Of a stretch of DNA of 64,000 nt, positions 27,557 to 30,735 are shown one piece after another; positions within the stretch are counted from its first letter, which is position 1, and each line of letters opens with the position of its first letter. The stretch is from Escherichia coli O127:H6 str. E2348/69. Its GTDB lineage: Bacteria; Pseudomonadota; Gammaproteobacteria; Enterobacterales; Enterobacteriaceae. The DNA lies in the NCBI RefSeq assembly GCF_000026545.1, contig NC_011601.1; one strand, written 5' to 3'. The notes beneath the pieces were generated by a model. It made no database searches. It was not told the DNA's origin and saw only the letters and a list, made by a program, of their open reading frames with translations. Position numbers and translations under genes: made by a program.

Positions 27557-27764
27557 GAGTTTTACTCCCTGTTTCAACAATCATCCTATTTTGCCATATC
27601 AGAAAAATAACATAGCGGTATAAATCAACAATTCCATATGAAATTGCTGCTACCACCAATACAACTTTAACTGCCTTAAATCAAAAATTGTCGCTGCAAG
27701 GTTAACTAAAATCCCAGTTCGTTAACATTTTTGCGTTTTGATAGCGCACCCTTCAGGAAAAATT

Positions 27765-28760
27765 ATGGAGCTGCTCTGCCCTGCCGGAAATCTCCCGGCG
27801 CTTAAGGCGGCCATCGAAAACGGCGCAGATGCTGTTTATATCGGGCTAAAAGATGATACCAATGCCCGTCACTTCGCCGGCCTTAACTTTACCGAGAAAA
27901 AATTGCAGGAAGCGGTGAGTTTTGTCCATCAACATCGCCGCAAACTTCACATCGCGATTAACACTTTTGCGCATCCGGACGGTTACGCCCGCTGGCAGCG
28001 CGCCGTGGATATGGCGGCGCAGCTGGGTGCCGACGCGCTGATCCTCGCCGACCTCGCCATGCTGGAGTACGCCGCCGAGCGTTACCCGCATATTGAACGT
28101 CACGTATCGGTGCAGGCTTCGGCGACCAATGAAGAGGCGATTAACTTTTATCATCGCCATTTTGACGTTGCCCGCGTGGTGCTGCCGCGCGTGTTGTCGA
28201 TTCATCAGGTGAAACAACTGGCACGGGTCACACCTGTACCACTGGAAGTCTTTGCTTTCGGCAGCCTGTGCATTATGTCGGAAGGTCGTTGCTATCTGTC
28301 GTCGTATTTGACGGGTGAGTCGCCCAACACTGTGGGCGCGTGTTCTCCGGCCCGTTTCGTGCGCTGGCAGCAAACGCCGCAGGGGCTGGAATCCCGCCTG
28401 AACGAAGTGCTGATCGACCGTTATCAGGACGGCGAAAACGCAGGTTATCCGACGCTATGTAAAGGGCGTTATCTGGTGGACGGCGAGCGCTATCACGCGC
28501 TGGAAGAACCAACCAGTCTCAATACCCTGGAACTGCTGCCGGAGTTAATGGCGGCGAATATTGCTTCGGTGAAAATTGAAGGCCGCCAGCGTAGCCCGGC
28601 GTATGTCAGCCAGGTGGCGAAAGTCTGGCGTCAGGCTATCGACCGTTGTAAGGCCGATCCGCAAAACTTCGTACCGCAAAGCGCGTGGATGGAGACGCTC
28701 GGGTCGATGTCCGAAGGCACGCAAACTACCCTTGGCGCGTATCACCGTAAATGGCAGTGA
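27765..28760 (+). CDS. ubiU: U32-family protein required for O2-independent ubiquinone biosynthesis (331 aa)
   Basis: Translation from MELLCPAGNLPALKAAIENGADAVYIG; also known as YhbU. Confidence 0.88.
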   Translation: MELLCPAGNLPALKAAIENGADAVYIGLKDDTNARHFAGLNFTEKKLQEAVSFVHQHRRKLHIAINTFAHPDGYARWQRAVDMAAQLGADALILADLAMLEYAAERYPHIERHVSVQASATNEEAINFYHRHFDVARVVLPRVLSIHQVKQLARVTPVPLEVFAFGSLCIMSEGRCYLSSYLTGESPNTVGACSPARFVRWQQTPQGLESRLNEVLIDRYQDGENAGYPTLCKGRYLVDGERYHALEEPTSLNTLELLPELMAANIASVKIEGRQRSPAYVSQVAKVWRQAIDRCKADPQNFVPQSAWMETLGSMSEGTQTTLGAYHRKWQ

Positions 28761-28768
28761 GAAAAGCA

Positions 28769-29647
28769 ATGAAATATTCTTTAGGGCCGGTGCTATGGTA
28801 CTGGCCAAAAGAGACGCTGGAAGACTTTTATCAGCAGGCCGCCGCCAGCAGCGCAGACGTGATTTATCTTGGTGAAGCGGTCTGTAGCAAACGCCGGGCA
28901 ACCAAAGTTGGCGACTGGCTGGAGATGGCAAAATCGCTCGCCGGAAGTGGCAAGCAGATTGTGCTCTCCACGCTGGCGCTGGTGCAGGCATCCTCCGAAC
29001 TGGGCGAACTGAAACGCTATGTTGAGAACGGTGAGTTTCTGATTGAAGCCAGCGATCTCGGCGTGGTGAATATGTGCGCTGAACGCAAACTGCCGTTCGT
29101 CGCCGGGCACGCGCTGAACTGCTACAACGCGGTGACGCTGAAAATATTGCTCAAACAGGGCATGATGCGCTGGTGTATGCCGGTGGAGCTTTCCCGCGAC
29201 TGGCTGGTGAATCTGCTTAATCAGTGCGATGAGTTGGGCATTCGCAACCAGTTTGAAGTGGAAGTCCTGAGCTACGGTCATCTACCTCTGGCCTACTCCG
29301 CCCGCTGCTTTACCGCGCGTTCGGAAGACCGCCCGAAAGATGAGTGTGAAACCTGCTGCATTAAATATCCGAACGGGCGCAACGTACTGTCGCAGGAAAA
29401 CCAACAAGTGTTTGTACTCAACGGCATTCAGACCATGAGCGGCTACGTTTACAACCTCGGTAACGAGCTGGCATCCATGCAGGGGCTGGTCGATGTGGTC
29501 CGCCTGTCACCGCAGGGTACTGACACTTTCGCAATGCTCGATGCCTTCCGCGCTAATGAAAATGGCGCTGCGCCACTACCGTTAACGGCAAACAGCGATT
29601 GTAACGGCTACTGGCGGCGACTGGCCGGGCTGGAGCTGCAAGCGTAA
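28769..29647 (+). CDS. ubiV: U32-family protein, partner of UbiU (292 aa)
   Basis: Translation from MKYSLGPVLWYWPKETLEDFY; also known as YhbV. Confidence 0.88.
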   Translation: MKYSLGPVLWYWPKETLEDFYQQAAASSADVIYLGEAVCSKRRATKVGDWLEMAKSLAGSGKQIVLSTLALVQASSELGELKRYVENGEFLIEASDLGVVNMCAERKLPFVAGHALNCYNAVTLKILLKQGMMRWCMPVELSRDWLVNLLNQCDELGIRNQFEVEVLSYGHLPLAYSARCFTARSEDRPKDECETCCIKYPNGRNVLSQENQQVFVLNGIQTMSGYVYNLGNELASMQGLVDVVRLSPQGTDTFAMLDAFRANENGAAPLPLTANSDCNGYWRRLAGLELQA

Positions 29648-29727
29648 GTATATAGCTCACTTTGTTAACAACTTTAACTACTCTTTAATGCAGTATTAAA
29701 GATTAATCGGTAACAAAGTGAGCTGTT

Positions 29728-30735
29728 ATGACTGATAAAACCATTGCGTTTTCGCTACTCGATCTGGCCCCCATCCCCGAAGGTTCTTCAGCGCGGGAAG
29801 CGTTCTCCCACTCTCTCGACCTCGCCCGTCTGGCTGAAAAGCGCGGCTATCATCGCTACTGGCTGGCAGAACACCACAATATGACCGGCATTGCCAGTGC
29901 TGCAACGTCGGTGTTAATTGGCTATCTGGCGGCGAATACCACCACGCTGCATCTGGGGTCTGGCGGCGTGATGTTGCCTAACCACTCACCGTTGGTGATC
30001 GCCGAACAATTCGGCACGCTCAATACGCTCTATCCGGGGCGAATCGATTTGGGGCTGGGCCGCGCGCCGGGTAGCGATCAGCGAACCATGATGGCGCTGC
30101 GTCGTCATATGAGCGGCGATATTGATAATTTCCCCCGCGATGTCGCGGAACTGGTGGACTGGTTTGACGCCCGCGATCCCAATCCGCATGTGCGCCCAGT
30201 ACCAGGCTATGGCGAGAAAATCCCCGTGTGGTTGTTAGGATCCAGCCTTTACAGCGCGCAACTGGCGGCGCAGCTTGGTCTGCCGTTTGCGTTTGCCTCA
30301 CACTTCGCGCCGGATATGTTGTTCCAGGCGCTGCATCTTTATCGCAGCAACTTCAAACCGTCGGCACGGTTGGAGAAACCGTATGCGATGGTGTGCATCA
30401 ATATTATCGCCGCCGACAGCAACCGCGATGCTGAATTCCTGTTTACCTCAATGCAGCAAGCCTTTGTGAAGCTGCGCCGCGGCGAAACCGGGCAACTGCC
30501 GCCACCGATTCAAAATATGGATCAGTTCTGGTCGCCGTCCGAACAGTATGGTGTGCAGCAGGCGCTGAGTATGTCGCTGGTGGGCGATAAAGCGAAAGTG
30601 CGTCATGGCTTGCAGTCGATCCTGCGCGAAACCGACGCCGATGAGATTATGGTTAACGGGCAGATTTTCGACCACCAGGCACGCCTGCATTCGTTTGAGC
30701 TGGCGATGGATGTGAAGGAAGAGTTGTTGGGGTAG
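29728..30735 (+). CDS. yhbW: Luciferase-like (LLM-class) monooxygenase YhbW (335 aa)
   Basis: Translation and length. Confidence 0.88.

Follow-up and report, generated by a model that had tools for sequence, protein, structure and literature searches.

The 80-bp spacer that separates ubiV from yhbW carries an inverted repeat whose downstream arm covers the ribosome-binding site (RBS) of yhbW, and the stress-induced promoter of yhbW is probably located inside this repeat. The explanation that we favour, with slightly less than even confidence, is that the resulting hairpin hides the ribosome site solely on RNA reading through from the upstream ubiUV operon, as in the fold-back inhibition of IS10 and IS50. 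By analogy, the element would be a case of transcript-isoform-specific RBS sequestration, a kind of element that is already known. No rival explanation accounts as well for the anchoring of one arm to the RBS, the anchoring of the other to the promoter and the G·U-biased pattern of change within the stem.

An inverted repeat in the ubiV-yhbW spacer

The spacer extends from the ubiV stop codon (29645-29647) to the yhbW ATG (29728). An initial inspection of the DNA (i.e. the sequence-only reading) had described a 14-bp repeat with a nested 8-bp hairpin upstream of yhbW and a right arm ending 3 nt before the yhbW ATG. Both the sequences and this distance were confirmed. The outer arms, AGCTCACTTTGTTA (29654-29667) and TAACAAAGTGAGCT (29711-29724), are 14 bp in length, 100% complementary and 43 nt apart. 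Nested within them is the perfect 8-bp inner hairpin TCTTTAAT-GCAGT-ATTAAAGA (29682-29702), which was scored by a repeat finder as 11-nt arms with 91% complementarity. Inclusion of one G·U pair lengthens the outer stem to 16 bp (29652-29667 and 29711-29726), one base short of the AUG. The features of the spacer, including the candidate promoter elements, are as follows.

29645..29647, + strand: ubiV stop codon TAA, closing the ORF at 28751-29647 (ubiV annotation in matching genomes); the extended stem starts 5 nt downstream.
29652..29671, + strand: candidate class II marbox/soxbox ATAGCTCACTTTGTTAACAA in forward orientation over the -35 region, matching 11/14 specified positions of AYNGCACNNWNNRYYAAAYN.
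29654..29667, + strand: left arm (anti-RBS if transcribed), with the stem reaching 29652 via one G·U pair; 29655-29667 is nearly invariant among 41 distinct orthologous sequences.
29670..29683, + strand: spacer of fixed length and free sequence from the left arm to the -10 block, with information mostly <1 bit and equal length in 42/42 sequences.
29682..29702, + strand: inner hairpin/palindrome, with a conserved core at 29684-29689 and 29695-29700.
29691..29696, + strand: candidate -10 hexamer CAGTAT, 19 bp downstream of the candidate marbox.
29702..29706, + strand: predicted start of the MarA/SoxS/Rob-dependent yhbW transcript, in the loop, as judged from the position of the candidate -10 hexamer.
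29711..29724, + strand: right arm with an SD-like GUGAG/GAG (29718-29722), the stem reaching 29726; its distance to the ATG is fixed in all taxa.
29728..30735, + strand: yhbW CDS, a luciferase-like flavin monooxygenase (PF00296).

This was the sole perfect inverted repeat of at least 14 nt with a loop of at most 100 nt in the window (i.e. the whole 64-kb stretch of DNA analysed). A mean of 0.01 such repeats was obtained in 100 first-order Markov simulations of the window, and the repeat exceeds chance expectation. The arm sequence was present in the window at the yhbW-upstream site only. A 121-nt RNA spanning the repeat folded at -31.5 kcal/mol (z = -4.16), with 0/200 shuffles folding as well. 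The spacer was found in 5423 of 5426 complete E. coli genomes, where it carries no annotation, and strain K-12 has the same repeat with one SNP located outside of it.

Conservation of the two arms across genera

Junctions between ubiV and yhbW were gathered from genome contigs, contigs encoding YhbW orthologues and metagenomes, giving 42 distinct sequences. Both arms were detected in Escherichia, Salmonella, Citrobacter, Enterobacter, Klebsiella, Kluyvera, Cronobacter, Franconibacter, Atlantibacter, Buttiauxella, Pluralibacter and Superficieibacter. The conservation that the sequence-only reading had proposed to check in orthologous regions thus holds for both arms in at least 12 genera of the Enterobacteriaceae. 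The arms are conserved as sequence (i.e. GCTCACTTTGTTA and TAACAAAGTGAGC), and the loop that they enclose varies in length from 43 to 161 nt. In the 42 sequences, the left arm has a constant spacing to the conserved -10-like block TTTAATGCAnTATTAAA; the right arm has a constant distance of 3 nt to the ATG in all taxa compared. Insertions of 80-160 nt are tolerated directly downstream of the -10 block, and the long-range stem is retained in the consensus fold of the insertion-bearing species.

The upstream edge of the left arm is a second site of insertion, with ERIC or REP elements located directly upstream of the arm in E. albertii, Salmonella and one E. coli isolate. Conservation restarts exactly at the left arm after these elements, and the sequence upstream is unconserved. 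The E. albertii insertion (L006:2150-2430) comprises ~280 bp including an ERIC/IRU element, and that of Salmonella (L082:1320-1430) is a REP/BIME-like pair; neither insertion disrupts the arms or the promoter block. The distance from the ubiV stop to the stem is 5 nt in E. coli and 3-7 nt in most taxa.

Providencia has no ubiV upstream of yhbW and keeps a right-arm-like RBS with the left arm absent, an arrangement that agrees with a left arm acting on ubiUV-derived RNA. A right-arm-like sequence is also kept in Erwinia, where the left arm is likewise absent. Candidate left-arm equivalents in Providencia, Erwinia, Acerihabitans and Aeromonas were rejected as weak duplexes (raw energies of -12 to -16 kcal/mol) that are unlike the left arm.

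A candidate activator-dependent promoter within the repeat

The yhbW gene is a member of the MarA/SoxS/Rob/RamA regulon and a multicopy suppressor of rpoE essentiality. RamA of K. pneumoniae binds the yhbW promoter in EMSA and activates it 6.9-fold in vitro on a 261-bp fragment (PMC4310594), yhbW of Salmonella is RamA-dependent (PMC3139621), and YhbW of E. coli was the protein most strongly induced by vanillin (~77-fold) and was reported to be a SoxS-regulon member (PMC6561319). The primers of the RamA study map exactly to the K. pneumoniae locus, with only 41 bp of the fragment preceding the left arm. A 20-bp marbox and a core promoter are too long for these 41 bp, indicating that the RamA-dependent start would lie within or beyond the arm.

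The best match to AYNGCACNNWNNRYYAAAYN, a confirmed soxbox/marbox consensus (PMC2064960), in the spacers of both E. coli and K. pneumoniae was located at 29652-29671, in forward orientation and with 11/14 specified positions in each case. In absolute terms this match is weak, with 3 mismatches in the 20-mer and a background of 1.9 hits per kb. With the 15-mer definition gcannwwntgnnaaa, the left arm matched at 7/10 positions, a score that is common (22 hits per kb). We infer from these matches that the left arm is the best candidate for a MarA/SoxS/Rob site. The candidate marbox is centred at 29661.5, corresponding to -41 to -44 relative to the predicted start, and CAGTAT follows 19 bp downstream; the reported range for the centres of class II marboxes is -36 to -55 from the start (PMC12052159). 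The genome screen in that study, which allowed 2 mismatches, missed this putative marbox.

A29692 and T29696 were invariant in 41/41 sequences and position 29693 was occupied by all four bases. The invariant A and T of CAnTAT would be the signature of a -10 hexamer in which the two critical positions are fixed. Together with a variable spacer of fixed length (17 nt), the marbox-like arm and the geometry of the Klebsiella RamA fragment, these invariant bases argue for a start in the loop, and the regulated yhbW transcript most likely starts at ~29702-29706 and lacks the left arm. The presence of ERIC/REP insertions up to the arm and of 80-160-nt insertions after the -10 block agrees with an in-loop start. 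The sequence-only reading had placed the repeat in the yhbW 5' leader. Both the existence of the stem and its conservation are borne out, but this putative promoter architecture would put the regulated start downstream of the left arm. If the in-loop start is correct, then the finding that was named in that reading as counting against sequestration (i.e. a start downstream of the left arm) applies to this transcript.

A scan for consensus sigma-70 promoters, requiring an A at position 2 of the -10 and at least 9/12 matches, returned none, as expected of an activator-dependent promoter. TTGTTA/TTTAAT was considered as a possible -35/-10 pair with a 16-bp spacer and was rejected as it lacks the -11 A; such a promoter would likewise start in the loop, leaving the in-loop conclusion unchanged. 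Published start-site and ChIP supplements for E. coli, Salmonella and Klebsiella contained no yhbW entry or matching coordinates (PMC12052159, PMC10268841, PMC5684230, PMC6131387, PMC3415461, PMC4782308), and in the supplements of the RamA study yhbW appears solely in the gene list and primer tables, with no start site (PMC4310594). A 12-nt exact match, ACAACTTTAACT, was observed between 27661-27672 (i.e. the ubiT-ubiU intergenic region, a divergent promoter region) and 29668-29679 in the variable spacer. It widens to 22 nt at 86%, and with an E-value of ~0.2-0.5 the match is probably due to chance.

Predicted folding and access to the ribosome-binding site

Access to the SD was predicted by partition-function folding of E. 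coli RNAs. In a read-through RNA containing both arms, the SD had a P(unpaired) of 0.00, and the arm-arm duplex was estimated at ~-22 kcal/mol for a stem of 14-16 bp. The proposal that the long stem, if transcribed, would sequester the SD thus agrees with the prediction. RNAs starting at 29696-29706 had P(unpaired) values of 0.82-0.89 for the SD, and a start at 29708 gave 0.63. Folding of the leader, which had been suggested as a check, therefore produced a strong stem where both arms are present but an open SD in the predicted RNAs that start in the loop. A similar difference was predicted across taxa, with P(unpaired) of the RBS at ≤0.14 for the read-through RNA in 13/14 and a largely open RBS (~0.5-0.75) for starts after the -10 block in 10/14. 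The K. pneumoniae RNA folded with a z of -4.6. A weak local hairpin, AUCGGUAACA...UGUUAUGACUGAU, was predicted in RNAs with in-loop starts (29706-29736), with the SD-like AAGUGAGC in its 8-nt loop.

In the mechanism that we propose, the spacer would have a dual use, as a promoter element in DNA and a translational block in RNA. The left arm and its flanks (29652-29671) would form a divergent marbox/soxbox that overlaps the -35 region, with CAGTAT (29691-29696) as the -10. The yhbW mRNA produced from this promoter, starting at ~29702-29706, would have a 5' UTR of ~22-26 nt with no left arm and an open RBS. Transcription is assumed also to enter yhbW from the upstream ubiUV operon, which is anaerobically expressed and FNR-activated; a scan of 29300-29900 detected no terminator-like sites between ubiV and yhbW. 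In the read-through RNA, the left arm would pair with the right arm, burying the SD and abutting the AUG, such that yhbW would be transcribed but poorly translated. If the start is indeed inside the loop, the stem can act only on ubiUV-derived RNA. A possible rationale is that expression of the anaerobic ubiUV operon would then not yield an O2-dependent flavin monooxygenase as a side product. More tentatively still, a marbox that becomes an anti-SD once transcribed from upstream could constitute a promoter-selective translational insulator, conserved in the Enterobacteriaceae and bracketing an ~80-nt 5'-UTR element in many genera.

Substitutions within the stem

Covariation statistics on the arms were not significant (86% of cells were paired and shuffles reached the same level) because both arms are nearly invariant. 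Of the suggested check on conservation and covariation, the first half was borne out, in that pairing is conserved and its changes are G·U-biased, but formal covariation was not significant. Substitution events in the 12-bp stem core were counted by parsimony on an approximate NJ tree constructed from 300 nt. Fifteen changes from Watson-Crick to G·U pairs were observed along with one full compensation (i.e. A-U to G-C in Mangrovibacter), for which G·U intermediates were present in Franconibacter and in sequences L008 and L153. There were six disruptions, every one a transversion, and no A·C-type transitions in the stem core on this tree. Transitions would be divided about evenly between the G·U and A·C types if only DNA mattered. 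G·U-type transitions occurred in five columns and A·C-type transitions in none, giving p ~0.03 at one event per column; the value is ~3×10⁻⁵ if all 15 G·U events are independent, a count that rests on a rough tree whose 300 nt may overstate independence. As a G·U bias is informative solely for sense-strand RNA, the bias and the compensated pair favour pairing in RNA over a palindrome in DNA.

Uncompensated mismatches or a bulge were present in Cronobacter, Enterobacter sp. Ag1, Mangrovibacter and 'Klebsiella' sp. BIGb0407. The Mangrovibacter arms contain the only fully compensated pair (GCTCGC/GCGAGT) but have two mismatches as well. In the inner hairpin, the 29687/29697 pair changed from A-T to C-G in several separate lineages.

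Other classes of element

The sequence-only reading had also raised the possibilities of a ubiUV terminator or a protein operator. The first of these was rejected; the stem is followed by GUUAUGACUG rather than a U-tract, 0 terminator-like sites were found in 29300-29900 and the stem encloses >100 nt in other genera. The operator proposal survives in part, in that no other sequence of the spacer is a better candidate for MarA/SoxS/Rob binding than the left arm, but the outer arms do not resemble the palindromic operator of a dimeric factor, for which a spacing of 43 to 161 nt is neither fixed nor short. The inner palindrome (29684-29700), with its fixed spacing and one covarying pair, may be an operator.

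A dispersed repeat or MITE (e.g. REP or ERIC/IRU) was excluded, as each E. coli genome has a single locus. The median count of 2 'places' in these genomes did not reflect a second genomic copy but the self-match of the palindrome on the minus strand, which scores 48.2 bits in K-12 and 47.3 bits in the window and so straddles the estimated ~47.7 bits for an E-value of 0.01. Rfam 15 gave no hit at gathering score; the sole hit at a permissive threshold was a spurious microRNA hairpin (25 bits versus a gathering score of 56).

Alternative functions of the repeat

The alternative that survives best, although we regard it as unlikely, is that the stem serves the ubiUV mRNA, either as a 3' exonuclease protector or as an RNase III processing site, or that it couples yhbW translation to ubiV termination through ribosomes that stop 5-7 nt upstream and melt the left arm. 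A stable 16-bp stem would suit such roles, and the constraint on sense-strand RNA fits them equally. With the stem beginning 3-7 nt past the ubiV stop in most taxa, terminating ribosomes could indeed melt it, turning the block into translational coupling. The right arm is, however, anchored to the ATG of yhbW and not to ubiV, even where the loop extends to 100-160 nt. Furthermore, 110-280 nt of REP/ERIC sequence separates the ubiV stop from the left arm in Salmonella, E. albertii and one E. coli isolate, and retention of the arms in these cases argues against stop-codon proximity as essential.

MarA-type proteins bind asymmetric 20-bp sites as monomers, the site being described as non-palindromic (PMC12052159), and both arms could accordingly be DNA sites for a monomeric AraC/XylS-type regulator (i.e. 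MarA, SoxS, Rob or RamA) or for another protein, with RNA pairing being incidental. One site would activate at -35 and the other, reversed and at ~+12, would act as a brake or decoy. This explanation, which we consider distinctly improbable, draws on the marbox-like character of the arms (3 mismatches to the 20-mer on the + strand and 4 on the - strand) and on their conservation as sequence and not via covariation. A degenerate marbox would not, however, be expected to hold its 'N' positions identical in two copies across genera. The one-sided transitions are all G·U-compatible on the sense RNA, a property that is meaningless for DNA recognition, and the right arm follows the ATG and not the promoter when 80-160 nt are inserted.

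A constitutive yhbW leader, with a start upstream of 29652 and a stem that always sequesters the SD until a factor opens it, is very unlikely. Its attractions are the strong predicted structure, the conserved pairing and the fact that no published start site was found that contradicts an upstream start. Upstream of the left arm, the RamA-activated Klebsiella fragment is too short for a marbox and core promoter, and the sequence there is unconserved and broken by ERIC or REP. The variable spacer of fixed length and the invariant A/T of CAnTAT resemble promoter DNA rather than RNA, and no Rfam family matched.

Equally improbable is a functionless complementarity, in which the arms are conserved separately (the left as promoter, the right as RBS) and recurrent intrastrand template switching during replication keeps a quasi-palindrome symmetrical; the 75% self-complementarity of the E. 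coli element over 77 nt and a perfect 38+38-nt palindrome in E. coli isolate 602, of the sort typical of quasi-palindrome correction, are in keeping with this process, but it yields perfect Watson-Crick pairs and leaves unexplained both the one-sided, G·U-compatible changes on the sense strand and the clade-wide persistence of G·U states (e.g. in Klebsiella and Kluyvera). The isolate 602 palindrome (L098:150-380, NZ_OW968111.1) is arranged around a single central base and looks like a template-switch mutation; in this isolate, ubiV and the left arm are also separated by an inserted ERIC/IRU element.

Comparison with known systems

In IS10 and IS50, fold-back inhibition protects the transposase gene from external promoters. 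Davis, Simons and Kleckner reportedly described this inhibition of read-through transcripts for IS10 in 1985, and work from the Reznikoff laboratory reportedly did so for IS50. These elements resemble the yhbW spacer in having an inverted repeat with the downstream arm over the RBS; at yhbW, the right arm holds GUGAG and ends 1-3 nt before the AUG, placing it over the SD. The resident promoter of IS10/IS50 starts between the arms, as is predicted from the sequence for yhbW, and only RNA from outside carries both arms and is translationally silent, as we propose for yhbW. The systems differ in that yhbW is a chromosomal stress-regulon gene and not a transposase gene, that its outside transcription would come from one specific neighbouring operon (i.e. 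ubiUV) and that its upstream arm seems also to serve as an activator (marbox) site. This apparent double role of an anti-RBS arm is the unusual aspect of the element, and we know of no other described marbox that is complementary to the RBS of its own gene.

The candidate promoter resembles class II MarA/SoxS/Rob (RamA) promoters in having a forward marbox-like 20-mer over the -35 region, with a centre within -36 to -55 of the predicted start, and in that yhbW, an established member of the regulon, is bound and activated directly by RamA in Klebsiella. It differs in that the putative marbox is divergent, with 3/14 specified positions mismatched. Intercistronic stems that sequester an RBS are also known to enforce translational coupling, as in MS2 coat/replicase and ribosomal-protein operons. 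The yhbW stem is similarly placed between co-directional cistrons, hides the downstream RBS and has the upstream stop close by, but the downstream gene would have its own strong inducible promoter inside the stem-loop, as predicted here, and the proximity of stop and stem is lost in Salmonella and E. albertii.

If fold-back inhibition of read-through RNA does operate at yhbW, it would be a chromosomal case of a design known until now chiefly from insertion sequences, in which one DNA segment serves as a promoter element but, if transcription comes from upstream, yields an RNA silencing the gene that follows. Such an arrangement could explain how packed, terminator-less operons avoid unwanted co-expression and would add a testable layer to the mar/sox/rob regulon. 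Detection of read-through yhbW mRNA by RNA-seq would then not imply the presence of YhbW protein.

Lineage-specific inserts in the yhbW 5' UTR

In Klebsiella, Kluyvera, Cronobacter, Franconibacter, Atlantibacter and relatives, the stretch from the -10 block to the right arm contains a conserved element of ~80 nt (L094:1410-1490 in K. pneumoniae; also L002, L007, L085, L088, L093, L095 and L100-L171), which E. coli, Salmonella, Citrobacter and Enterobacter lack. The element reads GCAGCTTTTCTGGC-[hairpin tip, variable]-GCCAGGCTGGAAGAAGACCTTCAATCTGATGACnnnGCTG. All 72 metagenome matches to a 27-nt core of this element were in the ubiV-yhbW context, indicating that it is locus-specific and not a dispersed repeat. 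No Rfam family was found for the element, which may be an undescribed 5'-UTR regulatory RNA of yhbW. The Klebsiella-type element is also an open frame of 27 codons, MQLFW...ARLEEDLQSDDDAVAK, with a UGA stop within the right arm (L094:1407-1490; e.g. L100, L102, L107, L111 and L145). An upstream ORF was rejected as a conserved gene; the 'start' varies (ATG, GTG, TTG, CTG, ACG, CCG, TCG or TTA), and in Cronobacter, Franconibacter, Atlantibacter and L002 the frame is interrupted, making a conserved peptide unlikely. Mangrovibacter (L097:1420-1470) has a different 5'-UTR insert with a strong hairpin, GGGCAGATG-CTAAAAC-CATCTGCCC, that is followed by a T-rich stretch and resembles a terminator or attenuator.
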